A stretch of DNA of 63,609 nt, counting the filler. It is 6 parts of 6 records of this genome, joined end to end, with 100 filler letters (N's around TTAATTAATTAA, not from the genome) between each part and the next. Parts side by side here need not be neighbours in the genome. Positions count along the whole stretch, not along the records: positions 53,744 to 63,609 come from SRR31156797_18324; 5 more parts are not named here. The stretch is one strand, 5' to 3'. Within the stretch, counting starts at the first letter, position 1; each line of letters opens with the position of its first letter. The position numbers and the translations under genes are program-made. This document shows positions 3,520 to 63,609 of the stretch, in pieces. Below the pieces are notes generated by a model that was not told the DNA's origin, made no database searches, and saw only the letters and a program-made list of their open reading frames with translations.

Positions 3520-3523
3520 AAAC

Positions 3524-6403: not shown

Positions 6404-6420
6404 AGTTTTTAATTTTTAGC

Positions 6421-6915: not shown

Positions 6916-7063
6916 ACGATATTTTAGCTTTTCACTTTTTTAAGACACCTTAGTTATTGATTTTAAGTCTATATAACTCAATTTCATTGCTTTTTTTAAG
7001 TTAATTAAAATAACAAAGGCTATAATCTCTTTTAGAAAACATAAAATAAGGAAAGTCTAAAAG

Positions 7064-8950: not shown

Positions 8951-8956
8951 CCCTCT

Positions 8957-9823: not shown

Positions 9824-9955
9824 AAGTTATTATAGCAAATAACAATAAAAAATATAAATAATAGCAATTTAGAGCATTTTTTTTGTGCTTTAAGAGAAAG
9901 ACTTCAAAAACTAAAAACTCTATAATTACAAGAAATTAAATACAAAGGAGTATTT

Positions 9956-10783: not shown

Positions 10784-10790
10784 TTTACTC

Positions 10791-28290: not shown

Positions 28291-28376
28291 TGTTTTCTCC
28301 TTTTGAGTAATTGATTTTCCACCGCAGCAAAAAGCGGTCGAGGTATTGATAACACTTAGCTATGGCGATCAAGCTA

Positions 28377-28392
28377 TGCAAATAAAATGCCA
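28377..28392 (-). promoter_or_regulatory. Sigma-54 (-24/-12) promoter of the S-layer gene
   Basis: TGGCAT-TTTAT-TTGCA with consensus spacing, about 87 nt upstream of the ATG. Confidence 0.75.
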
Positions 28393-28431
28393 AAGCACTT
28401 CATATCTTCATCACTTTAGCAAAACAAGCAC

Positions 28432-28444
28432 TATCAAGGTCTTA
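28432..28444 (+). promoter_or_regulatory. IHF-binding site
   Basis: TATCAAGGTCTTA matches WATCAANNNNTTR, about 40 nt upstream of the sigma54 -24 box. Confidence 0.55.
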
Positions 28445-28636
28445 AATTCTATCTTTTCAAGGTGTTAGGCTGTTTTTCATCAATAGATAAAAATCAAACC
28501 CTTCCATGACCCCGCACACCAAAAGCCACTGTCTGGTCAAATATGGATAATTGTGGCTTGATTTGGCCTCATGGGGCCGGAGCGATTAAGCGCCTGTTTA
28601 AAAATTGACGAATCGGATATAAGTCGATCGCAAATT

Positions 28637-31600
28637 TCAGGTTACAAAATCACTGTATCTCACCTGCAATCCTAAGCCTATTTTTTCCAATAACAGCTTT
28701 GCACTCTGCTCCCAGGATAACCACTGAACGGAATTTGACTCAGGATGCGCGCCATTATCATATAGTTTTACCCATTTTTCTATATCTTTTTTAATATCGT
28801 CTGTAGAGCCACCACTAAAATAGAATGCTCCATTAGATGCAACCTCTCGAAATATCGGAATATTTCTTGCGATAATTGGGAGTTTGTGCTGTGCGGCTTC
28901 GATCAAGGGTAAGCCAAACCCCTCGGTCACCGAAGCGGCAATTAAAGCACTGCAACTGGAATATAGCCTATTTAAGTGGCTGTCAGATAAGCCTTCCAAC
29001 CAATGCAACTTGCTTCCCAATTCTTTATGATTTCTTATCCTTTTAGCAAGAGCGCTGATATTCCAACCTTCTTTTCCGACAAGTATTAAAGAATAATCCT
29101 TACCTTCATCCCAGATTTTATCAAACGCATCAAGCACATCATTATGCCCTTTCCTTGGCTCTATTGTACCTACCATTAAAAAAGTCTTAGCGTAAAAAGA
29201 GACGTCAAAAGAGAAATCGTCATTATCTTCACTGGAGGGCGTCCCTTTTTCATTGATAAAATCAGCACCTAAATGAAAATAATCCACCTGGGACGACGGA
29301 TAACTTATGGAATTTGTTTTAAACCAATTTCTCAACTCATGGGAAACCGTATCTGATATACAGATCAGACCATCGGAACAATTTGCCAAGGATCGAATCC
29401 AATCGGCAAATGCCACCGTAATGTTGTTCAAAGAAAACGTTGGGTAAATAAGGGGGATAATATCGTAAACAACGTAATAGACCCTGGCACCGGCTGTTCT
29501 GTATTGTTGTATATGATATTCAGCCCCAGGAAAAATGTGTGCGGTCAAGTCCAAACCTAAAAACAGATCCCCGGCTCTCACCACGATGGATTCATCGGAT
29601 TCAAATTCAGTGACCTGTGATCCAAACCTGTCGGTATATTTAAACCCTGTATCGCCATCAAAATAGATCAATTTGACAACATAATTATCCAAGTTGAAAT
29701 TTAAAATTTCATTGATTATATTCCTTACGACTCTTTGAATCCCTGTTTTAGAATCGCGTTCATATATTCTTGATATATCAATGAGCAGCTGCTTTGTCAC
29801 TTTTGATACAAAAGCGCTTTCCCGGTTTGTGCGTTCACCAATGGTAAGATTTTCAATTTTTCTTTCCCGGTTCAGAGAAGTCATCATGGAAAATAACCGG
29901 TCAGATATAACATCCCAGCTTCTGTCTTGAAGCCAAGATCGCTGTTTTTCAATAAGTGCCTGTCTGAGTTCACCGTCATTTTCGAGCTTTAAAACAGCAT
30001 CAACGATACTTTCTTCATGGGAATCGGCCATTTTCAATGTTACATTTTCCAGATCAGAAAATATATCCAAAGGGCTTACTATAACAGGCCTATTGGTCGA
30101 TAACCCAATCGTAACAGCAGCACTTGCACTTTCGTTGGTTTCTTTATACGGAAATACGATATAATCACAGACCTTTAGTATTTTCTGACATTGTTCTACC
30201 GCTTGAAAATCCGTAATCCAGTGAACCCGTGCCTCAACGCCCAGTTTCTTTGACAGGATTTTATATTTGCTGAGAAGCACATCGCTTCTTTTATCCAGTG
30301 AGGCGTGTTGAGCGATAAAGTATACCTTTTTCTGGGTTAGTTTTTCCAACTTTGAAATAGATTTAATGATTGTATCTATTCCTTTGTGCGCCAACATAAA
30401 CCCAAAAGAGCCTAATATTAAAGCATCTTCGGGCACTTGCAACCGTTCACGCTGGGCAATTGACAGCTCGTCTTGTACCGGAGCGATGACACCCAGGGGA
30501 AGCAACATGACGTTTCTATATAACCCCAGCTGAAGCAGATTATTTAAATCTTCAACTTTATGCACAACTATTCGATCCAGGATATTTAAATGCATTATCG
30601 AATTAGGGGATAAGCCATCTTCCCTTAGAAAAAACTTGGTGGCGTGCAGCTCCAAGATAACAACTTTGCCTTGTTTATGCAGTTCGGCCAATTGATGGGT
30701 TACCTGATCATCAAGCATAAACAACGAAGGTTGATGTTGTACCAACACAACATCAGATTTATCTGCAAGAATTTCTCTTAATGTATCATAGGCACTTTCC
30801 ACCTGGCCTAACTGCCAGGAATTTCGTCCTTTTTCAACATTAACGACTGTCCTTTTATCATAATAGATAAAAGAATCGACGCGATCATTACCAATGATGC
30901 TGCCAAGCAGCTTATCACTATACTCTGCTATACCACAGCGGCACTTCCATGGCGTAAGAACAGATAAAGATAAAGATTGTTCTTTATGATTCTTTGCCGC
31001 CTCATATATCTCAACACTGTTCATTATGCCCTGAGCACAGTTTGCCCAATTATAAACAGTGCGGATATGTTCCATAGCGACTCTCCTGGATAACTGCATT
31101 TCAGAATCACCATTTTCTATACGCTGCCTTACCTTTATCAGCTTCTCTTTCAAATCAACACAATCAGGTTCAATCCAGCATGCATCAGTTGCAGTTAAAT
31201 GGCTTTTCGAATTTGCAAAGGCAAAATTTATTAAGGTTGATGTGTAATTTGTGCAAAAATCAATGTGTGCACTTTGACCGGTGGCTATTACTGGAAGGCC
31301 AATGGCCATGGCTTCGGCTGCAGGTAAATTAAACCCCTCTCCCCTGCTGGGCAACACCATAACATGTGCGCTTTTGTACAGTTCAATTAAGCCATTATCA
31401 TCCAAAGGGCTGTCATCAATCACAACTTTTGCAGCACAATCCCGATTCTTGGTAAGCGCAGCCACTATCGAATGTACGTTATTATGTGGATTGGGGAATG
31501 TCTTTATGTATAGTTCGACCGGATCATTGCCGTCGAAAGCTTCCAAATAAGCGTATAGCAATACATCCACACCTTTTCGCTCAAATGCAGATGATATATG

Positions 31601-33310
31601 CAAAAAACGAAACCGTCCCTTTTCAGGAACTGACAGGTGCTCTATGGGTTTAACATCTTCGCTTATCAGGTGATCAACGCCAATGGGAACTATAAATACA
31701 GGCAGATTACAACCCGAATTGATCAACGCGTTTTTTACTGAAGATGAAGCAACCCAAATAATGTCGAACTGATTATTTAATTGTTTGACCATTTCAAAGG
31801 GTATTGATGTCTCTTCCCAAAAAAATATAATTCCTTTTAATCCTGCAACTTGGGTATCATCAATAATTGGATAGTGATGTACAATAGAGACGACTTGTTC
31901 TTTTTCTCCTGAAGGGATCTCCCGATTGATTGTATCAATTAAAGCATCCTGCCTGGCCGGAATATCGTAATTTCCTTTCAGGTTTGGTTGTCCATGGTAA
32001 GGAAAAAAACTGAATTTCTGATCCAGGCAGTTATCCAAAGCACTTGCCAGCCCTCTATTAACTATGGCTAAACTATAATGTCCTTCCAGGTGCCCAACCA
32101 ACCGATACCAATTTTTTTTATCTTTGTTTGATCCCGGCAGCAAGACAGTTTCCGGATAATGGGGGACAGACGGCAATATACTGGCATCGAATTTTAAGTT
32201 GGTTCGATAATTTTTAACAGCGTATTTTTTATTTTTGTTTTGATTCAGGTGATACAAATTTAATATTTTTGTTTTTAACCAGGGAATCCGATTTAAAAAG
32301 CGCAATAAGTTTAATCGTAAAACATGATCAAACAAGCTTAAACTTAAATCCTTAAGTTTTTGTTTTGGAGAACACGCATTCCCATTATTATAAGATAACT
32401 TCATTTCATGGATCATATGACGCAAAGGTGATGTTAGACGCCAAGATGTACTGGAGAGAATTGATTCCAACTCAGATTTTAGCCATTCAATCTCTCTATT
32501 AAGCCTTGCCTCAGATTCTATATACCTTTGTGTTTCTTTTAGATATCTTTGTGTTTCTTTTAGTTGATTTTCTCTTTCTTTTTGATGAATTATCGCTTGT
32601 TTTTCGTTTTCTTCTTCTGCTAATTGCAAATCCAATATTTTAAAATCATCAAAAATATTCGGCGGATATAAAAATGCGTCTTTCAATGAGGCATGCTCTG
32701 CCGATACATAGTATCGATTTAAACCGTCACTATATACATGTTGATACTTTGAACCCAATAAAATGGACTCCCAAACTGAATAGCTATCCTCTTTAGTGTC
32801 AGGCACTGTCGCTTCGACGATGACAAGCCATGGACGGAACTTCAAAAAATCCATCCCTTCCAACACAAATTTTTCATACCCTTCAACATCAATCTTCAAA
32901 AAATGAATATCACCATCAACGTGATCTTCACAAATTTGCAAAAGTGTGTCCATGGGAACCTTTGTATATTCGCCTTCACACCCTTTGGCCTGGTGGATCT
33001 TTATTGTATCAGACGAAACCGTCGCCCAGCCTTGGGTCTCTGGTTCCCAAATCTCAATTTCCCCACAACTGCTACCCACTGCCAACTGTAAATTAATATC
33101 TCTGGGACGCTCTGCCACTAAAGACAAATAGTGTTTTTCAACAGGCTCAACATTAATTCCACGCCATCCGTTATCATAAAAGTGCTTTGTGACTGAATGA
33201 AATTCCGGGTCATTGGCACCGACATCTATATAGAAGCCATTTAAAATATGTTTAAGTGCCCTCCACAAGATGATGTCTTCACCATTTTGCGCGTAAGAAA
33301 TATTTGTCAT
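28637..33310 (-). CDS. FkbM methyltransferase - coiled coil - three GT-B/GT4 glycosyltransferase fusion (glycan polymerase/terminator)
   Basis: YIDVGANDP, LKIDVEGYE; coiled coil ending SWRLTSPLR; GT motifs RGEGFNLPAAEA, ESASAAVTIGL, TEGFGLPLIEAA. Confidence 0.88.
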   Translation of the reverse strand: MTNISYAQNGEDIILWRALKHILNGFYIDVGANDPEFHSVTKHFYDNGWRGINVEPVEKHYLSLVAERPRDINLQLAVGSSCGEIEIWEPETQGWATVSSDTIKIHQAKGCEGEYTKVPMDTLLQICEDHVDGDIHFLKIDVEGYEKFVLEGMDFLKFRPWLVIVEATVPDTKEDSYSVWESILLGSKYQHVYSDGLNRYYVSAEHASLKDAFLYPPNIFDDFKILDLQLAEEENEKQAIIHQKERENQLKETQRYLKETQRYIESEARLNREIEWLKSELESILSSTSWRLTSPLRHMIHEMKLSYNNGNACSPKQKLKDLSLSLFDHVLRLNLLRFLNRIPWLKTKILNLYHLNQNKNKKYAVKNYRTNLKFDASILPSVPHYPETVLLPGSNKDKKNWYRLVGHLEGHYSLAIVNRGLASALDNCLDQKFSFFPYHGQPNLKGNYDIPARQDALIDTINREIPSGEKEQVVSIVHHYPIIDDTQVAGLKGIIFFWEETSIPFEMVKQLNNQFDIIWVASSSVKNALINSGCNLPVFIVPIGVDHLISEDVKPIEHLSVPEKGRFRFLHISSAFERKGVDVLLYAYLEAFDGNDPVELYIKTFPNPHNNVHSIVAALTKNRDCAAKVVIDDSPLDDNGLIELYKSAHVMVLPSRGEGFNLPAAEAMAIGLPVIATGQSAHIDFCTNYTSTLINFAFANSKSHLTATDACWIEPDCVDLKEKLIKVRQRIENGDSEMQLSRRVAMEHIRTVYNWANCAQGIMNSVEIYEAAKNHKEQSLSLSVLTPWKCRCGIAEYSDKLLGSIIGNDRVDSFIYYDKRTVVNVEKGRNSWQLGQVESAYDTLREILADKSDVVLVQHQPSLFMLDDQVTHQLAELHKQGKVVILELHATKFFLREDGLSPNSIMHLNILDRIVVHKVEDLNNLLQLGLYRNVMLLPLGVIAPVQDELSIAQRERLQVPEDALILGSFGFMLAHKGIDTIIKSISKLEKLTQKKVYFIAQHASLDKRSDVLLSKYKILSKKLGVEARVHWITDFQAVEQCQKILKVCDYIVFPYKETNESASAAVTIGLSTNRPVIVSPLDIFSDLENVTLKMADSHEESIVDAVLKLENDGELRQALIEKQRSWLQDRSWDVISDRLFSMMTSLNRERKIENLTIGERTNRESAFVSKVTKQLLIDISRIYERDSKTGIQRVVRNIINEILNFNLDNYVVKLIYFDGDTGFKYTDRFGSQVTEFESDESIVVRAGDLFLGLDLTAHIFPGAEYHIQQYRTAGARVYYVVYDIIPLIYPTFSLNNITVAFADWIRSLANCSDGLICISDTVSHELRNWFKTNSISYPSSQVDYFHLGADFINEKGTPSSEDNDDFSFDVSFYAKTFLMVGTIEPRKGHNDVLDAFDKIWDEGKDYSLILVGKEGWNISALAKRIRNHKELGSKLHWLEGLSDSHLNRLYSSCSALIAASVTEGFGLPLIEAAQHKLPIIARNIPIFREVASNGAFYFSGGSTDDIKKDIEKWVKLYDNGAHPESNSVQWLSWEQSAKLLLEKIGLGLQVRYSDFVT
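32522..32563. repeat. 21-bp tandem duplication (LKETQRY x2) in the coiled coil
   Basis: ATACCTTTGTGTTTCTTTTAG / ATATCTTTGTGTTTCTTTTAG, one mismatch. Confidence 0.9.
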
Positions 33311-53743: not shown

Positions 53744-54066
53744 TGCCACGCAATCTGCCACTACTCATACAATCAACCGTGAATTATATTTTTAAAAGCT
53801 TGTAATGTCTTATATATCTGGCTAATATGGGGTTTGTGTAGTAGGGTGAGGAAATACAATTTACCATACAAATGGATAAACTAAACACCTAATAAATATC
53901 AAAAAAACTGTTGATAACTTTTATATATTTTTATTTGCTGAGAGGCTAATTTATGATGTTTTGCAGGGAAAAAGACTTTTATTGCAATCTAGGAGAGTAA
54001 CAATTCAATAAAAAGTTCGTTTGAATGTAATAGATAATAAATTAACCTCATTCAAAATATCTATTC

Positions 54067-55374
54067 ATGAAAATATTCCTAACAACTTTAATAATTGCAT
54101 TATCATTAACTGTTAATGCGCAAAAACTATTGCCGGAAAGTACAACTATTCCATGCTGTGATAACAAATACCATCTTTCAAATGAACCTATTACGAATAG
54201 AGAGTATATAACCTATTTGAATTGGTTAGAGTCCGTTTATAACAGCTTCCCTTTATTGAATAAACAAGTTTATGAAGCATTACCAGGAATCCTTTCGGAT
54301 GATATTAATAAGGATTTCAAAAATAGTAATGATTTTATCTACCATGTAACAGTCAATTTTCCGAATGCAAAACTATCCTCATTTGAGGATAAAACTGTGA
54401 GAAACCAGCTTATAAAGTCGAACAACAAAGCTGTAAAAACCAAAGACTTCAAATGGCCATACACATATTTCGAAGGAGATGGTAAAAAACAAGTTTACAA
54501 GCTTCATAAGTCTCTATACTTGGAAAATGCAACAAACTATGTAAAGGATTACATGTTTAATCCTAAATACCTTGATTACCCAGTTGTTGGTCTATCTCAA
54601 CTTCAAGCTTTAAAATATTTAAAGTGGTTAAGTGACCGATATAACGAATCTCAGCTTTTTGATAAAAAGCTACTACATTTTGACTCCAACCAATTAGGCG
54701 AAAACTGTTTTGTGACAGAGGCATACTTGGCAGAACAATATGCTGGTATACCTTCTGAAAAACATCCAGAGCATAACCTAAAATGGAATTCTGGCTTATT
54801 TCTTCCTTCTTTTCGTTTGCCTTGTGCCTATGAGCTAAATAAAAGGGATGATAAGATTGAATTTAAGGAGTATAAGAAAGATAAACTTAAGTTCTTAAAA
54901 CCTTGGTTATTTGAATTGAACATGAAAAGAGAAGAATATAAAATCACCTACTCAGAATACAATATAGAAATTGGTTTAAATTTATTCTCCTCTTTTAATA
55001 AGGAGTTTGAACTAGATTATTTTGAAAAAGAGATACTAACTCTTAATAGTCCTAATAATCAAGCTGAAAAAAATTATCTAAATCTTTTAGCCGATTTAGG
55101 CTATCCCGTAATCTCAATAAAGAAATTTCTTGATTCAGAAGGTTATGAGATTGAAAAAAATGCAGATGGCAACATGTGGTACACCATCATTGATGCGGAC
55201 GAAAGTGGTACGCTTACTTATATAGATAATTTTAAAACTCAAGAGTTTTTTGAAGCATCTAAAGATAAAGGTTGGAAATATAGAAATGAATATTTTAAAC
55301 TTCCATTAAAGCATGAAATTAATGATGATTTAAGGCCAGTTAAATTTGTGTTTACAACAATTCTTAATAATTAA
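54067..55374 (+). CDS. Secreted protein with degenerate FGE-sulfatase (GldJ/GldK-like) domain
   Basis: Signal peptide ending NAQ; EPITNREY, YMFNPKYLDYPVVGLSQLQALKYLKWLSDRYNE, FRLP. Confidence 0.65.
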   Translation: MKIFLTTLIIALSLTVNAQKLLPESTTIPCCDNKYHLSNEPITNREYITYLNWLESVYNSFPLLNKQVYEALPGILSDDINKDFKNSNDFIYHVTVNFPNAKLSSFEDKTVRNQLIKSNNKAVKTKDFKWPYTYFEGDGKKQVYKLHKSLYLENATNYVKDYMFNPKYLDYPVVGLSQLQALKYLKWLSDRYNESQLFDKKLLHFDSNQLGENCFVTEAYLAEQYAGIPSEKHPEHNLKWNSGLFLPSFRLPCAYELNKRDDKIEFKEYKKDKLKFLKPWLFELNMKREEYKITYSEYNIEIGLNLFSSFNKEFELDYFEKEILTLNSPNNQAEKNYLNLLADLGYPVISIKKFLDSEGYEIEKNADGNMWYTIIDADESGTLTYIDNFKTQEFFEASKDKGWKYRNEYFKLPLKHEINDDLRPVKFVFTTILNN

Positions 55375-55377
55375 ATA

Positions 55378-56403
55378 ATGATAATTGTTCTTAATCAATT
55401 AAATATGAATATAAGATTAGTTCTTATCCTGATTGTGTTATCTATCAGCTCAATCCCTGCATATAGTGAGACTACCTTTGAGCGTGGCTTTAAAGATGGT
55501 TACAAAGAAGGTTATTGTTACAACGATTATGGTTGTATTGCACCGATTCCTCCAATAGCACCAATTCCCAATGTTAACGAAAGTAAAGATAACTACCAAG
55601 ATGGTTATAATAGAGGCTTTAAGCGTGGCATGGAAGATAAAACAAGAGACTTAAAAAAGAAGCAAAATCAGGCAACTCCTAACACACAACAATTAAATAA
55701 TCATAAATTCAAAGATTTCACAGGAGCAGATATGAGTGGAACTTTACAAGCTCTGCCTGAAGTTGAGATGCCATCACAATCATCTATAAATAGAAAGCTA
55801 TGGGAACAAAATAGAAGCAGCGCAATTGCTATTGAGCAAAGCTATAGGTCTTTTAATTCATACCCTTCAAGCATTTCAAATGGCTGGCATAATGTTATCT
55901 GTGTAAGTAAACAAACAAACCAAAGAATTTCTGCAAAGGTACTTGTGTCATCCAATTTAATTAAAGATATAGAACCAGGAAAAAAGGCGGCTCATATCGA
56001 TATGAGTGTCACATACCCTACAAAAATTAATAACGCAAAAACATCCTTGCAATTAACATGGAACTATGATGGAAGTATTAAGGTTTTTGATGTTTACTTT
56101 TTTGAATATCTAAATAACCCAAATTCTTCTGCCACGCCACCATTAAAGAAAGGAAAAGTTAGTTTTTGGACTAATTGGAAGAAAGCAATAGGAACTAAAA
56201 TTTATATAGAGGATGAATATATTGGTACTTTCTATGGATACTTTACTGATGGAGAACCCAATTGTGGACAAGAAGGTACTGTAACATATGAAAACAAAGC
56301 TGGCAAATACTCTTTTAAAGCTTATTCCAAAAAGAAAGGCAATTGGGCTGGCACTATAGAAATCAAAGAAGAGGACTGCTCTACGATATTACTAGGTGAA
56401 TAA
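55378..56403 (+). CDS. Hypothetical secreted protein
   Basis: Signal peptide; GFKDGYKEGY/GYNRGF repeats around PIPPIAPIP; beta-rich C-terminus with Cys pair. Confidence 0.7.
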   Translation: MIIVLNQLNMNIRLVLILIVLSISSIPAYSETTFERGFKDGYKEGYCYNDYGCIAPIPPIAPIPNVNESKDNYQDGYNRGFKRGMEDKTRDLKKKQNQATPNTQQLNNHKFKDFTGADMSGTLQALPEVEMPSQSSINRKLWEQNRSSAIAIEQSYRSFNSYPSSISNGWHNVICVSKQTNQRISAKVLVSSNLIKDIEPGKKAAHIDMSVTYPTKINNAKTSLQLTWNYDGSIKVFDVYFFEYLNNPNSSATPPLKKGKVSFWTNWKKAIGTKIYIEDEYIGTFYGYFTDGEPNCGQEGTVTYENKAGKYSFKAYSKKKGNWAGTIEIKEEDCSTILLGE

Positions 56404-56513
56404 AGCTATCTGTGCATTAGATTATAATTCGAATAATCTTTAAAAAACTATAGTTGTAAGCTATCTAATAGCATATAACTTATTTCATTAAAATATGCTT
56501 ATCACGAAATAAA

Positions 56514-56915
56514 ATGAAAGGTGAATTTATGGAGAAAAAGGAAGAATTTTCTAAATCAGAACTTGAGAAAATACTGGTAATGTATAGTGAATTGAAAGTC
56601 TTATTTGATTCAGTTGAATATAAAGGTCTTGATTTTAAGGCTAAAAACGATGTAACATTTAAGGGCTATAGTGGCACGACAGAAAAGGAATGTGTTGAGT
56701 ACACTGAGGAAGTAATTAAAAATTTTGGTGATACCATTTATATTCATGAAGATGAACCTAATCAGGAAATGTTACCAATTTACAGAGATATGTATTTGCG
56801 CTTTATTGAGAAAAGAACTTCATCAATCTTTAATAGGTTAGAATCATCAGAACAACAAAGAAAAGAATTCATTGACTTTGTTGTGTATGGCGATACTAAA
56901 TTAAGCTGTAAATAA
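56514..56915 (+). CDS. YfbU-like protein
   Basis: ILVMYSEL..FKGYSGTTE..EMLPIYRDMY resembles the YfbU C-terminal part. Confidence 0.5.
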   Translation: MKGEFMEKKEEFSKSELEKILVMYSELKVLFDSVEYKGLDFKAKNDVTFKGYSGTTEKECVEYTEEVIKNFGDTIYIHEDEPNQEMLPIYRDMYLRFIEKRTSSIFNRLESSEQQRKEFIDFVVYGDTKLSCK

Positions 56916-56976
56916 GTTAAAATACTTTTTAGTTGTAGAGTGATAGAGCTCGGCAAACAAATAAAAATAATATTTA

Positions 56977-57852
56977 ATGATTTTTCCCGATAATAAAGAT
57001 TACCCAATATTCGCCGAAGGTATTGGAGACTTCAAAAATTTTGAAATACGACTTAATAAAGACCCTAAAGACATTGATTACGGTGATAGAATACTAATTT
57101 ACCATTGGAAACACCTAGCTGATTATAGATACTTGATTGTTGTAGGAAATAAAATTCCCCAAGGTGGTGGATATAGGAGGGCAAAATTAACATTTGATAA
57201 TCCTAAAGGGGAAAAGACCGTTGAAACTCAAGTAAAATTTGAAGAGGGTGTTTTACATACCAAGCTCCCTAATATTAGAGAAATTTCATTATTAGCTATT
57301 CAAAATATTTCTATTCGATACTCTTTTAGGAGCTATAATAAATATATTCAAAGAGAACTAGAAAGAAGCCGCAAAATTAAAGATTATGAAAAAGCGGAAA
57401 AAGAAAAAAGAGAAAAATACTGGAACAGTCCAGAAGGAAAGCACATTTTGAAATTGTTTAATGATGAACAGGAACAACTCAAAAAAGATAAGTTGGAAAA
57501 AAAGCGTGAAGCATGGTCTTGGTTTAACAGGTCTTTTTTACTTTATCTTGATGCAATAAAAATTTGGGATGCTAAGAAAGAACCATTTATTGATGAAATT
57601 TTAGAGCTTAAAAAGCAAAGAAGAAATTTAGGCGGTGAGGATAAAAAGAAGCAAAAAGAGTTATTTGAAAAAACTAACAACCTTAGGCGTGCTTTGCGAA
57701 AAGAACAAAATGATTTCATGAGTAAATACCAATGGCCTCGCACTATTTGGGGTAATTTGAAGTATTGCCCTCCTGAGTTAGAACAAGAAATTCGTACTTA
57801 CGTAAATAAGCACAATATCCCAATTAGACCACAAGTGGATATCGATAGTTAA
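56977..57852 (+). CDS. Hypothetical protein with charged helical C-terminus
   Basis: 291-aa ORF, family not recognised. Confidence 0.7.
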   Translation: MIFPDNKDYPIFAEGIGDFKNFEIRLNKDPKDIDYGDRILIYHWKHLADYRYLIVVGNKIPQGGGYRRAKLTFDNPKGEKTVETQVKFEEGVLHTKLPNIREISLLAIQNISIRYSFRSYNKYIQRELERSRKIKDYEKAEKEKREKYWNSPEGKHILKLFNDEQEQLKKDKLEKKREAWSWFNRSFLLYLDAIKIWDAKKEPFIDEILELKKQRRNLGGEDKKKQKELFEKTNNLRRALRKEQNDFMSKYQWPRTIWGNLKYCPPELEQEIRTYVNKHNIPIRPQVDIDS

Positions 57853-57856
57853 TATG

Positions 57857-57901
57857 GCTATTTTTCCAGTAAATGTTTACGTTATTTGTTGGAAAAATAG
57901 C
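57857..57901. terminator. Bidirectional terminator between cargo genes and the lysis cassette
   Basis: GCTATTTTTCCA...TGGAAAAATAGC 12-bp perfect stem, extendable with G-U pairs, between convergent stops. Confidence 0.75.
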
Positions 57902-57912
57902 ACATATTTTAT

Positions 57913-58473
57913 TTAATGAATAAATAAAATTGCATCAATCCTTCTCAACCACCCTTTCAAAAATTTATGATTCTGACCTTTCTGAGCAATGGTGTTGTAA
58001 TAATGGATGCGAGCAGATTTAATAGCATTAAATAATGATTCCGGGTGACATGAATTAATCGCCTTAACCGTATTCCTTCCAATAATACCATCCAATTTAA
58101 GGTCATATTCAAAAAAACGGTTCAATACTTTTTGAACTCCACAGCTACCCCAGTAACCACTATTTACGCACCAATCAAAAATGATTTCTTGCAAAGGACC
58201 AGAAACAATATAGCCTATTTTATATTTATCGTAGAAGTTATGCTTGTAGAAATCCTTAACCAATTCCGTTAATCCTGGAATATCTAGCTTTGTATTCCGC
58301 TTTATTTCTCCAAACGCTTGTTTGTATTCATCAATAAGCTGCCAACCATCCCAATTAGGATGTAAGTTCCGGGCTACACCCATATAGGTTTCACCACCTT
58401 TATCTCCGATTACGTTGGCATAATAGCCTTCATGTTTGATTACACCATCAAACAATTCATCAAAAGTCTTCAT
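57913..58473 (-). CDS. Glycoside hydrolase family 108 endolysin with C-terminal peptidoglycan-binding domain
   Basis: HEGYYAN..DKGGETYMGV, FDWCVNSG, DGIIGRNT, FLKGWLRR. Confidence 0.92.
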   Translation of the reverse strand: MKTFDELFDGVIKHEGYYANVIGDKGGETYMGVARNLHPNWDGWQLIDEYKQAFGEIKRNTKLDIPGLTELVKDFYKHNFYDKYKIGYIVSGPLQEIIFDWCVNSGYWGSCGVQKVLNRFFEYDLKLDGIIGRNTVKAINSCHPESLFNAIKSARIHYYNTIAQKGQNHKFLKGWLRRIDAILFIH

Positions 58474-58882
58474 TCTTACGTTTGGTTTTAAGTTTTACAT
58501 TGTTTACTCCTGATATTGCACCACCGAAGAGAAAGTCAATAATGGTGCTTAGTTTGGTGGATATTCCACCGTTGATACTGCTTATGAAAGCTATTTGCCA
58601 ATCCTGCAATTCAATTGTTTGAAAAACAAAATAGTTGAGCATAATGAAGGTCAGACCACACCATGCAACCAGGAAGAAGATTGCAAATGTTTTTTGCAGC
58701 AAGCTGTCCTGTGCATACATGGTTCTTGCTGAATCTCGGTCGGCAACCGCCATTTTAAAAAGCTCCATTTTTCCCTGGAGCTTTTCTTCCTGAGTAGTAA
58801 AAATCTCATCAATGAGTTTTGTACCAACCTTGAGTGTTTCCGTAACTCCGGCATTGGTTAGTTTTCCAAATATCTTTCTCAT
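58460..58882 (-). CDS. Holin (3TM/GTA-release-holin-like)
   Basis: TTQEEK..ADRDSARTMY, two TMs, IIDFLFGG; overlaps the endolysin start. Confidence 0.7.
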   Translation of the reverse strand: MRKIFGKLTNAGVTETLKVGTKLIDEIFTTQEEKLQGKMELFKMAVADRDSARTMYAQDSLLQKTFAIFFLVAWCGLTFIMLNYFVFQTIELQDWQIAFISSINGGISTKLSTIIDFLFGGAISGVNNVKLKTKRKNEDF

Positions 58883-59211
58883 CGCTCTACAAATTTTAAG
58901 ATGGTATCTAGCTTCTCATTAAGCTGCTTAATTGTTTGGTGAAACAGCTCCTTACTAACATAAATTTCTTTTGAGCTATCTCTTAAATCAGAAACACGCT
59001 TATGCAGTATGGCAAACTTGTTTTCAGCTCCTTCCAATTCTTTAGTAAGGTGTTGAATATCCTTCTCAAGTAAATCGGTCTTAGCATCAACGGTTTCTTT
59101 AGTGGCATTTTTAGAAATAGCATTGCGGATTATGTATGAGAGTACACCTACTGTGAGAGAACTCAATCCGGCTATAACCACCCAATAGAATTTAATTGTC
59201 ATTTCTTCCAT
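58879..59211 (-). CDS. Membrane-anchored coiled-coil protein of the lysis cassette
   Basis: True start likely MEEMTIKF at 59211, right after the ATPase stop; one N-terminal TM then a coiled coil ending KLDTIL. Confidence 0.7.
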   Translation of the reverse strand: MEEMTIKFYWVVIAGLSSLTVGVLSYIIRNAISKNATKETVDAKTDLLEKDIQHLTKELEGAENKFAILHKRVSDLRDSSKEIYVSKELFHQTIKQLNEKLDTILKFVER

Positions 59212-59212
59212 G

Positions 59213-59845
59213 CTAAAAGATTTTAATGGTTTCTGTACTACCCTCCGGAAAGCGGTTTTTCTCCATCGTTGCACTTTGATTTTCAATGTGCATAATAGCA
59301 TCCACAAGATGTTCGTATTTCGTTCCACCTTTAGATGTCCCGTCACGGTTTGCTTGATTGATGATTACAAATGAGGTATAGAGATATTGTTTCTTCAGCT
59401 CAACAAGTTCCTCGTGCGATACTTCAGTAGTTTGTGTACTATCAATAAATACCACATCGTAATCCTTGAATAGTTTCGGATTGTAATCTTCAATTATTCC
59501 AATCGGACTGTTAATCCCAAGTCTTACTACTTTCTCCTGCATTGTTCCTTTTGCACCTTCTTCATTGGCTACATACAGGACTTTATAACCATGCTGTTTT
59601 ACCAATTCATCGGCAAACATCAAGGCTACGGTACTCTTGCCATGAAAGCGTGAGCCGTAAATCATTATATAGAATGGGATATACAGCTTGCCTAATAGTT
59701 TACCGAATCTTCCCCTAATGGAGATGGTCTTAAAATTCATCTTGGCAAGGTCGTTTGCTAAAACAACCTGGTCGGATGCGATGACTGCGGTTCTCGTGGT
59801 GCCGGGATTGAATGCCCTGTTTTGTGAGCCACTACTTTTGGGCAT
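59213..59845 (-). CDS. RecA-superfamily (RadA/Sms-like) P-loop ATPase, probably made as a frameshift fusion
   Basis: Walker A GSRFHGKS, VLYVANEEG, Walker B VVFIDS, NQANRDG..GGTKYEHLVD, EKNRF. Confidence 0.85.
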   Translation of the reverse strand: MPKSSGSQNRAFNPGTTRTAVIASDQVVLANDLAKMNFKTISIRGRFGKLLGKLYIPFYIMIYGSRFHGKSTVALMFADELVKQHGYKVLYVANEEGAKGTMQEKVVRLGINSPIGIIEDYNPKLFKDYDVVFIDSTQTTEVSHEELVELKKQYLYTSFVIINQANRDGTSKGGTKYEHLVDAIMHIENQSATMEKNRFPEGSTETIKIF

Positions 59846-59869
59846 GGAAGTAGTGGCATTTACTTTCCC
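59812..59869 (-). other. -1 programmed ribosomal frameshift signal: G GGA AAG plus H-type pseudoknot
   Basis: Slip site 59869-59863; spacer TAAAT; S1 GCCACTACTT/AAGTAGTGGC; S2 ATGCCC/GGGCAT; -1 frame open into the ATPase. Confidence 0.85.
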
Positions 59870-60726
59870 AATCCGGCAATGCCTTGTAGCCCTTTTAACT
59901 GAACATTGGTAACAAGCAGCTTGTCACTCTCCAGATAATCATGTAAATGCTTTTGGACGTTTTTCACCTGTTCAAATTCTTTGTCGGACTTGTTGACCTT
60001 ACCGTTTTTCAATGAATTGGTAACTGTAGTAAGTAAGCGTTGGGCTTTTGCTTTTGTGATATTGCCATATAAATTGATAAACCTTTTAATCAATGCAACT
60101 GCCGGAGTAACACCATAGTCATCCACAATCTTTTTAAGCTTTGTGTATAGTGAATCCGGAACTTCAAACTTGCAAGTACCATTCATTTCTTTGTAGGTCT
60201 TAATCAAGTCATTACTTATGCTTTTAATTTCAGAGGCGTACTTGCTTGATTTGCGAATGGTCTTTTCGGTAGCAGCCTTTTGAATCACCTTATACAATAG
60301 CGATACCTGACGTTCTGTTACCTTCTTATTGTGGAAGTTCAGATAACGCCTGATTACCTTAATCTCCAACGGCATCAAATCAACCTCAATGGGTTTTCGT
60401 TGTGCTTTTTTTGGTACTGCCATTTTCTTTGTTGCTGTCCGTTTGGGTGAAGCTTTCTTTGTCACATTTTTTGTTGATTTTTGAGACAAGGTAGTCTTCT
60501 TCTTCGCTGATGTTTTCTTTGGTGCAGGGCTTTTCTTTTCTGAATCCTTTAGGTAAGGTTCAACGATTTTGAAATGATTATCCAACATCTCTTTTATATC
60601 CTTATCCTCATTGTAGAAATCGGCAAATGAATCGAACTCTTTATGTGCTTCCTGTGCTGCTTCCGGCAACTTTTTGAAGTCAATATTTTTGGTGGCTTCC
60701 TTGTAGTTTTTGATTGTTAATTTCAT
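59860..60726 (-). CDS. Basic hypothetical protein with histone-H1-like linker and duplicated helical domain
   Basis: SPAPKKTSAKKK..KKASPKRTATKK linker; IRRYLNFHNK / IKRFINLYGN internal repeat; ends GIAGLGK. Confidence 0.85.
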   Translation of the reverse strand: MKLTIKNYKEATKNIDFKKLPEAAQEAHKEFDSFADFYNEDKDIKEMLDNHFKIVEPYLKDSEKKSPAPKKTSAKKKTTLSQKSTKNVTKKASPKRTATKKMAVPKKAQRKPIEVDLMPLEIKVIRRYLNFHNKKVTERQVSLLYKVIQKAATEKTIRKSSKYASEIKSISNDLIKTYKEMNGTCKFEVPDSLYTKLKKIVDDYGVTPAVALIKRFINLYGNITKAKAQRLLTTVTNSLKNGKVNKSDKEFEQVKNVQKHLHDYLESDKLLVTNVQLKGLQGIAGLGK

Positions 60727-60760
60727 ACTATTTGATATTAAGTTTTTAGTACACTATTTA

Positions 60761-63091
60761 TTATTCGCTGCCCTTCGCAAGGGCTTGTTTCTGTTTAATG
60801 CGAATTGCTTTAGCCCTGATTTTGGCAAGTTTCAGTTTGCGTTCTTTGCCCACTATCACACCTTTGTTCACGCTGCCTTTTTCGGTCAGGTCGATGTATT
60901 CATCGGCTCGTTTATCGGTAAATGGTTCAAATGATTTTATGGATAAATACTCCTTGATTGCATAAATCAGGTTATCAAAGCACTTGTTGATGTAAATGCG
61001 TTCCTGACCCTGCGGATAAACAGGATGAGAAAACATACCTCCTGATACCAAGTAGTTATTTACCCGGTCCTTTTCCTTTAGCTTGTCGTACACATAACAT
61101 TCAAAGCTTCGAGCAAACATCTCAGCGATGTTTTTCCAATAGGCACCTTGAAGTTTGGAGTAGTGATACAGGTAGCTATCGGTCGGTCGCTTTTTAGAGC
61201 CATTAGAATTGAAATTATCATAGCTCACACAGATACCGCCTTCTGCACCGTAATAACCAAATCTAAGCATGACGATTAATTGCGCAATGCTCTGATGAAG
61301 GACTGTTTTAGGAACGTCATCTTCTAAAACAACCTTTAATATCGACTTGAACCAATCTTTTGTTGGGGAGGATTTACTGCCAATGAAATACTTCTTGCGA
61401 TACCCTAAACTTTCAATGATGGTATTCAGATAGCTTTCTGAACGCAATGGTTTGGTTGATAATTCTAAACCATTCAAATAATGGTCAAAGAAATGCCCCC
61501 ACTCATGGGCTACCGAACCGTCACCGTTACGTTTGGTCAGGTTGATGAGCTGCCGTGTTGGGTAATAAGTAGCCATTGCTTTACCACCACGACCGAATGC
61601 ACCGAATGCAATAGCCAGGGCTTCGTTTATGGATAGGTTGATGTCAAGTACCTCGCATAAATCAACGATGGCTGCAACAAAGTGGCGAATGTGTTCCCTG
61701 GCTTCATCATCCTTCACATAGTTTCCTAATGTGAGCGATTTAAAATGAAGCTTTTTGATAACCGTATTTTCATCCGCTTCTTCAATTAATAAACCTCCTG
61801 TGCGTTTGATATATGATAGCGGTACGGCTTCTATTTTAGGCTTGCTGCTGCTTTTTGATTTGCTTGCTTTCTTTGTTTCTGCCCAGCTCCAATCAGGTTT
61901 AAATTCCTTGTATGGAAATTGCTCTTTTTTCTGGTTATATTCACGTTTGGCATCATTTATAAATCGGGTACAAACCTGAGTGACATACCTTACATAGTCT
62001 TCTACAGTTCTAACGCTGCTCAACATTCCACCCCTAAACGTGAGGTCGGTTTGCTTGTGACGTTTCATATCTGCTGTTGAAATGATTTGGTGAGCTGAAT
62101 CAATACAATCGTTCTGACGTTTGATTTTCATTTCCATCAAGTGTTTCAACTTTGCAGCATGAGGCTCTGCCTGCTCCTTTGTTACTCCTGAATAGTGATG
62201 GGCTTTCATGTAGGTTTCCTTAACCGCATTGGTTGTGCGGTAGCCCTTAATGGTAAAGACAATGTTGCGCAGAGCCTTCCCAAATATTAATCCAAAATCA
62301 TACTTGCCAACAATTTCACCATTATTGGCGATGGTTTCGAGTTGTTGTAAATTAGTAATTGTAATGGCATCATGCAGAACTCTTACAAAAGCCTCTGCCA
62401 TTCTCACATATTGCTCCCTGGCTTCTTTGGTAGCTTTATGTGGCTTGGGTGGGAATGCCTGACGAATCTTTACTTTCAGGAATGCACACCCAGCATCTGT
62501 ACCATTTTCTTTTTCTGCTTGTGGGTCAATCTTTGGAAATACCTTATCCTTTTTGACCAGCTCGATGGCGGTAGCTTCGTCCTGTTCGATGCTGTTTAAA
62601 TCGCTACTACTAATTAGTTTGTTGTACATGGCTTGTTCCTTTCTGGAACCATGAACACGCTTCCCGGCATCCTTAAATTCCCGGTTCTTTTGCTTCTCCT
62701 GTAAAGCTTTCTCGACTTCCGTGTCAATATCCCCAAGATTTTCATTGGGGGTTGCTAAGTTGGCGCAATAGTTTTCGTATAAAGACCATTCATCGCTGAT
62801 AATAAAGAATCCATCATTGGGATTAGGTTTGTAACCTTGCTTTGTTTTGTAGCCATTCCGACCTTCAACGAATCCTTGTTTGGGTAGAATCCAAACGAAG
62901 TCACCTTTTCTCGATTTATATCGGGTTGCAATAATATCGGTTGCTTTCTCAAAACCTTTATAGATGGGCAAAGCATTGACATTAACGCCCTCTTTAAAAC
63001 CATTGGCTAATATGGAAACCTTTGATTTTCCTTTGGTGCGAATATCCTTGTGAATGGCTTTATACTTTTTATAAAACTCCTTTTCCGTCAT
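60761..63091 (-). CDS. Polyvalent protein with zincin-like metallopeptidase and LPD1-like domains
   Basis: DAGKRVHGSRKE, LAIAFGAFGRGG, GSVAHEWGHFFD (HExxH), EMFARSFECYVYDKL..NNYL..YPQGQER. Confidence 0.8.
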   Translation of the reverse strand: MTEKEFYKKYKAIHKDIRTKGKSKVSILANGFKEGVNVNALPIYKGFEKATDIIATRYKSRKGDFVWILPKQGFVEGRNGYKTKQGYKPNPNDGFFIISDEWSLYENYCANLATPNENLGDIDTEVEKALQEKQKNREFKDAGKRVHGSRKEQAMYNKLISSSDLNSIEQDEATAIELVKKDKVFPKIDPQAEKENGTDAGCAFLKVKIRQAFPPKPHKATKEAREQYVRMAEAFVRVLHDAITITNLQQLETIANNGEIVGKYDFGLIFGKALRNIVFTIKGYRTTNAVKETYMKAHHYSGVTKEQAEPHAAKLKHLMEMKIKRQNDCIDSAHQIISTADMKRHKQTDLTFRGGMLSSVRTVEDYVRYVTQVCTRFINDAKREYNQKKEQFPYKEFKPDWSWAETKKASKSKSSSKPKIEAVPLSYIKRTGGLLIEEADENTVIKKLHFKSLTLGNYVKDDEAREHIRHFVAAIVDLCEVLDINLSINEALAIAFGAFGRGGKAMATYYPTRQLINLTKRNGDGSVAHEWGHFFDHYLNGLELSTKPLRSESYLNTIIESLGYRKKYFIGSKSSPTKDWFKSILKVVLEDDVPKTVLHQSIAQLIVMLRFGYYGAEGGICVSYDNFNSNGSKKRPTDSYLYHYSKLQGAYWKNIAEMFARSFECYVYDKLKEKDRVNNYLVSGGMFSHPVYPQGQERIYINKCFDNLIYAIKEYLSIKSFEPFTDKRADEYIDLTEKGSVNKGVIVGKERKLKLAKIRAKAIRIKQKQALAKGSE

Positions 63092-63609
63092 AGTATGGTC
63101 TTGATTTTAGGATGAGTACCAAGCCCGGCAACTGCCCGAAGCTGTTTCTGCTTAATCAGGATTGCCTTTGCACGGAGCTTCACAAGCTTCAATTGTTTAC
63201 CTGTGTCAATGCTTACCTTTTTACCTTTAGGTGCGGATTGCTTTTGTTTGGCCAGTCGTTTGGGAAATTCCTTTTTGTCTTGCTCAAACATCTTCATCGC
63301 CTCATTGGTAAGGCTATCGGTGGAGTTGCTTCGCTTTGTTCCCTTATCCAAAAACTCATCGTAGTAATGGCGTGGGATTTTAACCGAAAGGCTAAACCGC
63401 TCACCAAGCAGATTAAGAAGTTTGGGCATCTTTCTTTCTTCAACCGAAGCCCTCATATTTCCCGAAACCATTTCAAATCCATCCCGATTATTAACCAGAA
63501 GCTTCACTACATTTTTATCGGTATAAATGGGAATGTGAGTTTTGGTTTTAGGCATGATGACCTTAAAAGTGCCATCATAATGCCTGGCTATTGTAATCCT
63601 GTTTTCGGT
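63088..63609 (-). CDS. C-terminal part of a larger protein, 5'-truncated by the window edge
   Basis: Frame open upstream of the ORF-track Met (TENRITIARHYDGTFKVIMPK...) to position 63609; ends with the shared basic tag. Confidence 0.8.
   Translation of the reverse strand, partial: TENRITIARHYDGTFKVIMPKTKTHIPIYTDKNVVKLLVNNRDGFEMVSGNMRASVEERKMPKLLNLLGERFSLSVKIPRHYYDEFLDKGTKRSNSTDSLTNEAMKMFEQDKKEFPKRLAKQKQSAPKGKKVSIDTGKQLKLVKLRAKAILIKQKQLRAVAGLGTHPKIKTIL

Follow-up and report, generated by a model that had tools for sequence, protein, structure and literature searches.

A probable programmed -1 ribosomal frameshift joining a 288-aa protein to a RadA/Sms-like ATPase domain in a Bacteroidota provirus

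A two-gene cassette in a provirus of Marinilabiliaceae-type Bacteroidota very probably encodes a programmed -1 ribosomal frameshift. The cassette occupies the minus strand of the window, i.e. the whole 63,609-nt stretch of DNA that was analysed. The initial annotation had proposed that slippage at the heptamer G_GGA_AAG, aided by a downstream stimulator, fuses a 288-aa protein to an ATPase. This proposal is supported by the conservation of the heptamer, by covariation in the downstream RNA, by homologs in which the two parts are fused and by loci that have no AUG at the start of the ATPase. The main support is comparative, and does not come from the chance statistics of the heptamer or of the fold.

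In the proposed mechanism, the ribosome would arrive at G_GGA_AAG with tRNA-Gly on GGA and tRNA-Lys on AAG, while a 10-bp stem located 5 nt downstream, probably pseudoknotted, would resist unwinding at the mRNA entrance. A fraction of the ribosomes would then re-pair one base back, on GGG AAA, and read through the structure into the RadA/Sms-like domain, yielding a fusion of about 504 aa; the remaining ribosomes would terminate at the UAA after the heptamer and release the 288-aa protein. Both the slippage itself and its efficiency are what we infer from sequence. The short form would presumably be abundant and the fusion minor, at a fixed ratio. Because the fusion is the ordinary single-ORF form of the family, what the cassette would add is a short, ATPase-less isoform at a set ratio. 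We guess that it serves to control the stoichiometry of a DNA translocase module in the polyvalent, possibly virion-delivered, protein set of the element.

The junction and its two proteins

All elements of the junction lie on the minus strand. The upstream zero-frame ORF (59860-60726; 288 aa) ends TTG GGA AAG TAA. The heptamer (59863-59869) is in the X_XXY_YYZ register, with GGA and AAG as the zero-frame codons, and the stop codon TAA (59860-59862), directly 3' of it, forms the first three nucleotides of the 5-nt spacer UAAAU (59858-59862) that separates the heptamer from stem 1. The 5' arm of stem 1, GCCACUACUU (59848-59857), makes 10 perfect pairs with the 3' arm AAGUAGUGGC (59828-59837), which is inside the ATPase frame as the codons K-S-S-G. 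Between the two arms is the loop CCAUGCCCAA, which contains AUGCCC (59840-59845), the 5' arm of stem 2. The complementary 3' arm GGGCAU (59812-59817) follows the 3' arm of stem 1 across the A-rich 10-nt loop UCACAAAACA (59818-59827). The initial annotation had described the ORF end, the heptamer, the spacer, the 10-bp stem and the AUGCCC/GGGCAU complementarity, and each is found on the minus strand at the position given there. The AUG that opens the ATPase ORF, said to be buried in stem 2, is indeed part of its 5' arm.

The -1 frame is already open upstream of the heptamer and, as had been claimed, reads GKVNATTSMPKSSGSQ... directly into the ATPase ORF (59213-59845, -1 frame; 210 aa from the AUG). 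The predicted length of the fusion, 288+6+210 = 504 aa, matches the earlier figure. Taken by itself, the heptamer occurs in the window at chance frequency (10 copies vs 11.0 +/- 3.3 expected). The 91-nt region folds at -26.9 kcal/mol, compared with -18.85 +/- 3.06 kcal/mol for its shuffles (z = -2.63), one of 200 shuffles being as good. An intrinsic terminator at stem 1 was ruled out, as no U-run is present 3' of the stem. Contigs of four public runs carry no indel at the site, one of them spanning 59724-59880 with 0 differences, and the same gene arrangement is found in dozens of independent assemblies, isolates among them. The frame relation is not an assembly error.

In the 288-aa protein, a lysine-rich disordered linker (residues ~62-116) separates a helical N-terminal region from a helical C-terminal domain, the latter with an internal repeat, and the sequence ends in ...GIAGLGK before the stop. 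Its AlphaFold2 model has a mean pLDDT of 70.9, with residues 62-116 below 50. It is conserved among 18 aligned homologs. No family in Pfam or NCBIfam was matched, Foldseek comparison of the model with the PDB returned no match at E<=0.001, and the ESM Atlas gave no usable match. PHROGs yielded one weak match (0.0014), and a tblastn search of 50,697 phage records none. The protein thus shows the lysine-rich linker but no fold that could be recognised, and the DNA-binding character suggested in the initial annotation is putative.

The 210-aa ORF encodes a minimal RadA/Sms-like, RecA-fold P-loop ATPase domain. It contains the Walker A motif GSRFHGKS (~59633-59656), VVFIDS and, at its end, the motif KNRF (~59249-59260), which is invariant in 18 sequences and is a defining motif of RadA. 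Matches to Pfam are weak (KaiC and AAA_24), PHROG 6891 'ATPase' is matched at 8.8e-20, and NCBIfam TIGR00416 sms at 7.9e-6, with 24.9 bits against a cut-off of 403. The family profile matches the solved RadA chains 5lkm_A and 8rxc_D at ~2e-4, KNRF being aligned to the RadA KNRF-GS, so that the RecA/RadA-like identity put forward in the initial annotation holds at the profile level, KNRF included. The Walker A, Walker B and KNRF(G) core is aligned over residues 44-208. Since the protein ends right after KNRF, it lacks the part of RadA beyond the alignment, which ends at residue 263 of the 452-residue chain. RadA is built of a zinc finger, the ATPase and a Lon-like domain. With neither this full architecture nor a score reaching the family cut-off, the protein counts as RadA-like and not as a RadA orthologue. 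The AlphaFold2 model of the ATPase is poor and was left out of the fold search because its pLDDT is only 59.

Slip site, reading frame and RNA structure among relatives

Among 67 distinct related sequences, the heptamer G_GGA_AAG is identical in 66, the exception being L063 with GGAAAAG. GGA is used in 66 and AAG in all 67, and the third-codon positions at the slip site are G, A and G in every sequence. The codon before GGA is variable (TTG, GTG, CTG, TCG, ATG), yet its final base is G every time. In the same ORFs, GGA accounts for 25% of the Gly codons and AAG for 47% of the Lys codons, and the Gly codons near the slip site use all four synonyms. A stop follows the heptamer directly in 67 of 67 (TAA in 65, TGA and TAG in one each). 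The conservation that the initial annotation had asked for among homologous gene pairs is thus found as a freezing of synonymous sites, implying that the heptamer is kept beyond the needs of the protein.

The ATPase is in the -1 frame relative to the upstream ORF in every one of the 61 distinct two-gene loci (63 rows minus 2 duplicates; 4 further loci are cut at contig ends). The AUG at the start of the ATPase is missing from 21 of 62 loci, which have AAG, ACG, UCG, CAG, CCG or AAA there instead, and metagenome loci supply additional examples. In three of the 21 (L045, L056 and L059), the stretch from the slip site to a Met 35 codons on contains no AUG, GUG or UUG. In the AUG-less loci, the linker codons show pN/pS of 0.16-0.85 in 31 of 31 pairs, and both other frames are interrupted by stops in every pair, which indicates that these codons are under purifying selection. 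The peptide that the -1 frame encodes over the 5' arm of stem 1 is also conserved among loci. From these comparisons, the -1 frame is open across the site and appears to encode a conserved product that depends on the shift.

These data bear on the alternative that the pair consists of two separately initiated genes, in which the ATPase would start from its own AUG or from the Met 35 codons in, the hairpin would regulate initiation or mRNA stability, and GGGAAAG would be kept for the GLGK end of the upstream protein. The clade of the window does have an in-frame AUG 15 nt past the stop, so that some free ATPase may be made from the AUG in the stem 1 loop. Public records name 210-aa proteins, and the sequence cluster of the ATPase includes a public protein of 175 aa. 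The AUG-less loci retain a conserved Met (in LAKM) upstream of Walker A, and 175 aa would be the length expected for a start at this residue. Stand-alone ATPases of ~200-215 aa also occur among more distant relatives. However, the AUG in the loop is dispensable, being absent from 21 of 62 loci, and in those 21 the linker is nevertheless under purifying selection. Separate initiation would leave the 5' arm of stem 1 without a coding role, although the peptide read from it in the -1 frame is conserved; neither the frozen synonymous sites of the heptamer nor the constant G ending of the variable codon before it fits this alternative, and the prevalence of the fused form in the family, described below, also speaks against it. 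We consider two separate genes improbable.

The RNA downstream of the slip site was compared in 59 distinct sequences representing 32 structural types. In the per-sequence analysis, a stem 1 of 8-12 bp is present in 59 of 59, starting 2-6 nt, and mostly 5 nt, past the heptamer. Its sequence changes on both sides: a U-A pair is replaced by C-G in the L001 group, the L054 group has the 11-bp variant GCCACUUCUAC/GUAGGGGUGGC, and L060 has CCGCUAU/AUAGCGG. In an alignment of 72 sequences, which was fitted to stem 1 with the structure taken from one member sequence, so that both choices lean the counts toward the structure, 92.7% of the cells of stem 1 and 79% of those of stem 2 are paired, and two-sided changes are seen in 5 of 10 and 3 of 6 pairs, respectively. 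For the whole structure, 8 pairs show two-sided changes, compared with 3.4 +/- 1.2 in shuffles, and 0 of 500 shuffles reach 8. Controls in which the partner was slid by 1-3 columns are paired in only 27-46%, and a MAFFT alignment gives a similar picture. In the L049/L053/L054/L078/L079 group, the 3' arm is wrongly placed by both the MAFFT and the covariance-model alignments. The counts from the MAFFT and 72-sequence alignments therefore understate the pairing there, and the per-sequence analysis was used for this group instead. The comparison points to a stable RNA structure, placed downstream at a 5-nt spacing and backed by covariation.

The second helix is also variable by lineage, as UGUCC/GGACA in L036, where the encoded amino acids are altered too, AGCCC/GGGCU in L043 and UGCCUAA/UUAGGCA in L060. 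In the L054 and L079 groups, the register is shifted to CCCUUG/CAAGGG. Compensatory changes, which the initial annotation had named as a check, are therefore found in both helices, stem 2 being less secure than stem 1. An H-type pseudoknot formed by AUGCCC and GGGCAU probably locks stem 1. The pseudoknot is less certain than the hairpin because stem 2 is short (4-7 bp, with 4 bp in many lineages) and essentially absent from L056, and because its nearly invariant CCC/GGG core doubles as codons for Pro and Arg-Ala.

The same properties underlie the most substantial of the alternatives, namely that the -1 frameshift is real but is stimulated by the stem 1 hairpin alone, with AUGCCC/GGGCAU as a by-product of conserved Met-Pro and Arg-Ala codons. 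An almost invariant core lying in coding sequence, only 3 bp in L056 and only 4 bp in several lineages, and a pairing frequency of helix 2 lower than that of helix 1 all speak for it. Against it, both arms of stem 2 have changed together in L036, L043 and L060, and the register is shifted in the L054/L079 groups. Wherever the pairing is retained, 7-14 nt separate stem 1 from the 3' arm of stem 2, and the intervening loop is A-rich. On balance, stimulation by the hairpin alone seems unlikely, but it is the alternative to which we give the most weight.

An outer helix, GCCGGAUUG/CAAUCCCGGC, appears in the minimum-energy fold. Its pairing of 71% is due only to the dominance of the close clade, and it is not kept in divergent members; it was rejected. 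A ribosome at the slip site would melt this helix anyway.

Fused relatives and genomic setting

In-frame fused homologs, another of the checks named in the initial annotation, are present and represent the family norm. Over residues 1-275, P0002 (491 aa) shares 71% identity with the upstream ORF; it then continues into the ATPase, and fused relatives are found at 71-77% identity. Of the best 150 representatives matched by the ATPase profile, 127 are at least 295 aa long with a C-terminal ATPase, and 107 also match the profile of the upstream ORF, with that module on the N-terminal side. In a sample of 401 Bacteroidia genomes, with one unpublished genome (G396) excluded, 56 of 62 matches are in open frames of at least 400 aa. 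A single in-frame fused protein is thus the norm of the wider family.

With fused relatives this close, the split arrangement may have arisen from a fused gene, and the cassette might be a once-fused gene that was broken by a one-base deletion and is now decaying, with no recoding involved. In such a gene, both halves would not be expected to stay intact, as they do here: across 61 loci, they are conserved at 58-100% identity, with several copies per genome. Moreover, the break is always at a canonical slippery heptamer followed by a covarying structure, pN/pS is below 1 downstream of it, and neither relaxed selection nor scattered further frameshifts are seen in the ATPase part across the clade. 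Decay is accordingly a very improbable explanation.

Three distant split relatives carry runs of A9-A10 at the same junction. Tracts of this type support polymerase slippage, and the frame could in principle be changed in the RNA or DNA, through slippage during transcription or a variable tract length, instead of by the ribosome. In the clade of the window, however, GGGAAAG offers just three consecutive A's, and indel variants are absent from the site in the contigs of the four runs. The conserved spacing to the downstream structure is a feature of ribosomal, not of polymerase, slippage. We regard a change at the RNA or DNA level as highly improbable for this cassette, and retain ribosomal -1 frameshifting as the preferred reading.

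Window positions 57919-63609 align to positions 26123-31804 of a 45-kb provirus record (G001) at 83% identity. The upstream neighbour (60761-63091, minus strand) encodes a 776-aa protein with an LPD1 domain (Pfam PF18796, 5e-19; PHROG 18947, 1.4e-69). Since LPD1 is a marker of polyvalent proteins, the gene pair can be placed in a polyvalent-protein gene row. Downstream in the same provirus is a set of lysis-like genes with Pfam and PHROG matches (57913-59211, minus strand), comprising a TM/coiled-coil protein (58879-59211), a holin-like protein (58460-58882) and an endolysin with GH108 and PG_binding_3 (57913-58473). Relatives of the ATPase are fused to LPD3, RadC, ART-PolyVal, MuF_C and Helicase_C_4. 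These matches indicate that the ATPase belongs to the polyvalent-protein repertoire of Bacteroidota mobile elements.

Comparison with known systems and implications

The closest likeness at the slip site is to lambda G/GT, which uses the identical heptamer. As in lambda, the slip in the cassette would be at the very end of the upstream ORF, and a short product would be made together with a C-terminally extended one from a phage genome. In the cassette, however, the proteins are unrelated to tail chaperones and, at 288 + 216 aa, much larger; the added part is a P-loop ATPase, a stem or pseudoknot is conserved downstream, and the host is a member of the Bacteroidota. The pair matches no tail-chaperone family in Pfam or PHROGs, and its neighbours are polyvalent-protein and lysis genes. 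G_GGA_AAG is listed as highly shift-prone in E. coli in a review (PMC5009743).

In insertion sequences of the IS3 family, such as IS911, OrfA has close to its end a heptamer whose last bases are A_AAG, followed by a stem-loop or pseudoknot, and the OrfA/OrfAB fusion adds a catalytic domain to a small basic protein. The cassette resembles them in the A_AAG ending, the downstream structure and the predicted addition of an enzymatic domain by fusion. It differs in having G_GGA_AAG instead of A_AAA_AAG, and in being part of the gene row of a 45-kb provirus, not of an insertion sequence. Neither ORF matches a transposase or DDE family in Pfam, PHROGs or NCBIfam. The initial view that the context is neither a tail chaperone nor a transposase thus agrees with the searches for both.

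Recoding in dnaX, like that proposed here, gives two isoforms, tau and gamma, of a DNA-transaction ATPase protein at a set ratio, and related organisms use a poly-A tract for it, comparable to the A9-A10 relatives here. The polarity is reversed in the cassette, in which the shifted product would be full-length and the unshifted one truncated, making the ATPase domain optional.

Iyer et al. 2017 (PMC5512222) describe an SMS/RadA domain of the RecA superfamily in Bacteroidetes polyvalent proteins and place it mainly in conjugative elements and plasmids; the word 'frameshift' is absent from their paper. The ATPase resembles that domain in its RadA-profile match, the retained KNRF, the LPD1 neighbour and the polyvalent-domain fusions of its relatives; it differs in residing in a provirus with lysis genes, and its attachment by recoding would be new. 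The nearest named phage protein is gp40 of Salisaeta icosahedral phage 1, with 25.7% identity over 82% of the query. It is labelled 'ATPase; structural protein' by GenBank annotation and adjoins a giant methyltransferase structural protein, but is very distant, separately encoded and 320 aa long.

The initial annotation had not recognised the cassette as a described recoding case, and no description of this frameshift was found in the literature searched or in public protein names. The cassette reads as a new, well-supported case within the known class of -1 frameshifts. To our knowledge, bacteria and their viruses have few established programmed -1 frameshifts beyond tail chaperones, insertion sequences and dnaX. 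Tail chaperones make up nearly all of the annotated phage cases; in the PRFect training set, they account for 2397 of 2476 (PMC10885494). The case would add a new protein family to the examples and a compact, covarying stimulator usable as a reporter. It would also offer a test case of recoding on the ribosomes of Bacteroidota, which initiate without Shine-Dalgarno pairing. Annotation would be corrected as well: the public ATPase proteins examined are named hypothetical protein, P-loop NTPase, "predicted ATP-dependent serine protease" or RadA, and none of these names mentions a frameshift.

The cassette further suggests that polyvalent-protein gene rows tune the dose of an enzymatic module by recoding. 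Tentatively, and with more doubt than confidence, we propose that the ATPase boundary is a family-wide recoding hot spot in the polyvalent proteins of Bacteroidota mobile elements. Other lineages carry A9-A10 tracts at this boundary, both split and fused forms being represented. A heptamer plus pseudoknot would be used in one clade and these tracts elsewhere, each giving a short, scaffold-like protein and a long DNA-translocase form in fixed proportions. If so, the arrangement would resemble Gag/Gag-Pol as a means of bringing a small number of motor molecules into a particle or onto incoming DNA.

Proposed slip site and downstream RNA structure

The 288-aa upstream ORF (59860-60726, minus strand) ends TTG GGA AAG TAA, which places the heptamer G_GGA_AAG (59863-59869, minus strand) in the X_XXY_YYZ register, and the 210-aa ATPase ORF (59213-59845, minus strand) starts 15 nt past the upstream ORF in the -1 frame. 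On the same strand, a 5-nt spacer, UAAAU, separates the heptamer from stem 1, a perfect 10-bp helix (59848-59857 with 59828-59837). Its loop, CCAUGCCCAA, contains AUGCCC, which is complementary to GGGCAU (59812-59817), located directly 3' of the stretch UCACAAAACA; this second helix, stem 2, would complete an H-type pseudoknot. Re-reading of the minus strand reproduced all positions that the initial annotation had assigned to slip site and structure. The heptamer by itself is at chance level, with 10 copies in the window versus 11.0 +/- 3.3 expected, and the 91-nt region folds more stably than its shuffled versions (z -2.63). The minimum-energy fold also contains an outer helix, GCCGGAUUG/CAAUCCCGGC (59790-59880, minus strand), which surrounds the slip site and the entire pseudoknot and is conserved in the close clade only.

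An indel error in the raw data was one of the alternatives raised by the initial annotation. The contigs of four runs contain no indel at the slip site, and the best-covering run spans 59724-59880 without a difference.

For comparison, we gathered 62 genome, 2 viral and 16 metagenome loci, mostly from Carboxylicivirga, Saccharicrinis, Plebeiibacterium and other Marinilabiliaceae, with many isolates and often several loci per genome; four loci end at contig edges. All 61 distinct loci holding both genes have the ATPase in the -1 frame. GGGAAAG is conserved in 66 of 67 distinct sequences, and the stop codon follows it directly in 67/67. The third positions of the three heptamer codons are invariant, while the first codon varies (TTG, GTG, CTG, TCG, ATG), Gly codons nearby use all four synonyms, and elsewhere in the same ORFs GGA and AAG account for 25% of Gly and 47% of Lys codons, respectively. 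The exception, locus L063, has GGAAAAG, changing Gly to Glu (protein end AGLEK), and otherwise keeps the stop, spacer and both helices; slippage at its heptamer may be weaker or involve a single tRNA.

Stem 1 (8-12 bp) is present in 59/59 distinct sequences examined and begins 2-6 nt, mostly 5 nt, 3' of the heptamer. In a 72-sequence alignment fitted to stem 1, with the tested structure taken from one of its own sequences, 92.7% of cells in helix 1 and 79% in helix 2 are paired, and both sides are altered in 5 of 10 and 3 of 6 pairs, respectively. The total of 8 both-sided changes compares with 3.4 +/- 1.2 in shuffles (0/500 shuffles), slid controls are only 27-46% paired, and a MAFFT alignment gives a similar pairing picture. 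Individual lineages illustrate the compensation in stem 1: the L001 group has C-G in place of U-A, an 11-bp variant occurs in the L054 group, and the stem of L060 is almost wholly different (CCGCUAU/AUAGCGG). Stem 2 is compensated in L036 (UGUCC/GGACA), L043 (AGCCC/GGGCU) and L060 (UGCCUAA/UUAGGCA) and shifted in register in the L054 and L079 groups (CCCUUG/CAAGGG); in many lineages it is limited to 4 bp, and in L056 it is almost missing. The stem 1 hairpin is considered secure, and the pseudoknot probable.

The two proteins and translation of the linker

The downstream ORF encodes a P-loop ATPase, which matches KaiC and AAA_24 weakly, a PHROG 'ATPase' family at 8.8e-20 and RadA/Sms below threshold. 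With a profile built from 18 homologs, the best PDB relatives are solved RadA chains (~2e-4), and the invariant KNRF of the family aligns to the KNRF-GS of RadA, bearing out the RadA-likeness originally proposed. The C-terminal end falls directly after KNRF. Judging from its sequence, the protein is a minimal RadA-like core and no RadA orthologue. Database names are 'hypothetical protein', 'P-loop NTPase', 'predicted ATP-dependent serine protease' and 'RadA'; the protease name, carried by several members of the ATPase cluster (P0161), is inherited from RadA/Sms, and the protease domain is absent.

Separate initiation of the ATPase was examined through its AUG, which is missing in 21 of 62 loci and replaced by AAG, ACG, UCG, CAG, CCG or AAA. 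Three of these (L045, L056 and L059) have no AUG, GUG or UUG ahead of a Met 35 codons downstream, and L060 lacks the Met found there elsewhere. The -1 frame peptide from the heptamer onward, GKV(N/K/T)AT..., is conserved among these loci. Where the AUG is missing, pN/pS of the linker codons is 0.16-0.85 in 31/31 pairs and both other frames contain stops, indicating that the stretch between stop and ATPase core is translated even without a start codon. The P0161 cluster includes a public 175-aa protein, the length expected if an AUG-less locus starts at the internal Met.

The model of the upstream protein is helical at the N-terminus and in a C-terminal domain and has a disordered, lysine-rich stretch at residues 62-116. 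DNA binding, suggested by the initial annotation, stays a guess because no family was found and Foldseek and protein atlas searches gave no match. The C-terminal domain (59860-60370, minus strand) has two similar segments, IKVIRRYLNFH... and LIKRFINLYG.... C-terminal ends recur along the gene row: ...LRAKAILIKQKQLRAVAGLG... in the 63088-63609 ORF, which runs off the window end, IRAKAIRIKQKQALAKGSE in the 776-aa LPD1 protein, and GIAGLGK in the 288-aa protein. These motifs, common to successive genes (60761-63609, minus strand), are possibly module boundaries or processing sites.

Fused relatives and module boundaries

A search for longer proteins found in-frame fusions. P0002 (491 aa) matches residues 1-275 of the upstream ORF at 71% identity and continues into the ATPase, P0003 joins LPD3 to the ATPase, and P0001 carries the entire upstream module twice ahead of it. 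The ATPase profile gave 2523 matches at E<=0.001 among 1.84 billion representatives; of the best 150, 127 are at least 295 aa with a C-terminal ATPase, 22 are at most 260 aa, and 107 also match the upstream-ORF profile. Some fused relatives have additional RadC, ART-PolyVal, MuF_C or Helicase_C_4 domains. In a 301-genome sample of the order, the close clade accounts for 6 matches in open frames of 227-236 aa, and the more distant matches are mostly in frames of 287-878 aa; in a 401-genome sample of the class, counted without the unpublished G396, frames of at least 400 aa hold 56 of 62 matches. A single fused ORF is thus the family norm, and the clade of the window carries the same protein broken at a conserved slippery site.

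A9-A10 runs occur at the same module boundary in three distant split relatives (L094, L098, L099), where the tract is followed by the ATPase in the -1 frame, and in frame in 5 of 28 fused genomic relatives (L091, L095, L111, L112, L121); 8 of 28 fused ORFs have at least 7 A's there. The A9-A10 tracts lie directly 3' of the conserved LNGL.GI.G motif closing the upstream module and could reflect slippage of the polymerase or of the ribosome, variation in phase, or homopolymer-length assembly errors.

Provirus context and proposed recoding

Positions 57919-63609 are 83% identical to part of a 45-kb record, a provirus per IMG/VR (completeness ~98%). The gene order is large polyvalent-type proteins, LPD1 protein, 288-aa ORF, ATPase, holin-like gene and endolysin gene. 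Among the 20 largest ORFs of the provirus, 13 have no PHROG match and none was assigned to a terminase, capsid or tail family; the provirus also has a primase and a transposase-like gene. The closest named phage protein is gp40 of Salisaeta icosahedral phage 1, an annotated structural ATPase with an identity of only 25.7%. An SMS/RadA domain is described within Bacteroidetes polyvalent proteins by Iyer et al. 2017 (PMC5512222), where the term 'frameshift' is absent.

The window has three composition blocks: 1-12000 (~29% GC), 12600-54000 (40-55% GC; genes resembling those of ABC transporters, a regulator gene, and two long ORFs, 1705 and 1557 aa, that are not phage-like by PHROGs), and 54000-57900 (31% GC), with plus-strand ORFs and adjoining the endolysin. 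Homology to the provirus begins only at 57919. Several genomes carry multiple element copies (L017, L021, L027, L047 and others; one chromosome record has four loci), and loci are frequently at contig ends in draft assemblies, as expected for an active repeated mobile element.

Frame, slip site, covariation, AUG-less loci and fused relatives together back the frameshift originally proposed, and we consider a programmed -1 ribosomal frameshift at G_GGA_AAG very likely. The heptamer is rated highly shift-prone in E. coli in a review (PMC5009743). The majority of ribosomes would stop at the UAA right after the heptamer, yielding the 288-aa protein, and some would slip to GGG AAA, helped by stem 1 and probably the pseudoknot, yielding a fusion of ~504 aa, the usual full-length form of the family. 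We infer the product ratio and the purpose of the ATPase-less isoform. None of the public ATPase names examined mentions frameshifting, and a literature search outside supplementary lists of predicted frameshifts found nothing on this one. We read the site as a new case within a known class of recoding signals, found in a new protein family and in a host phylum that has been little studied.
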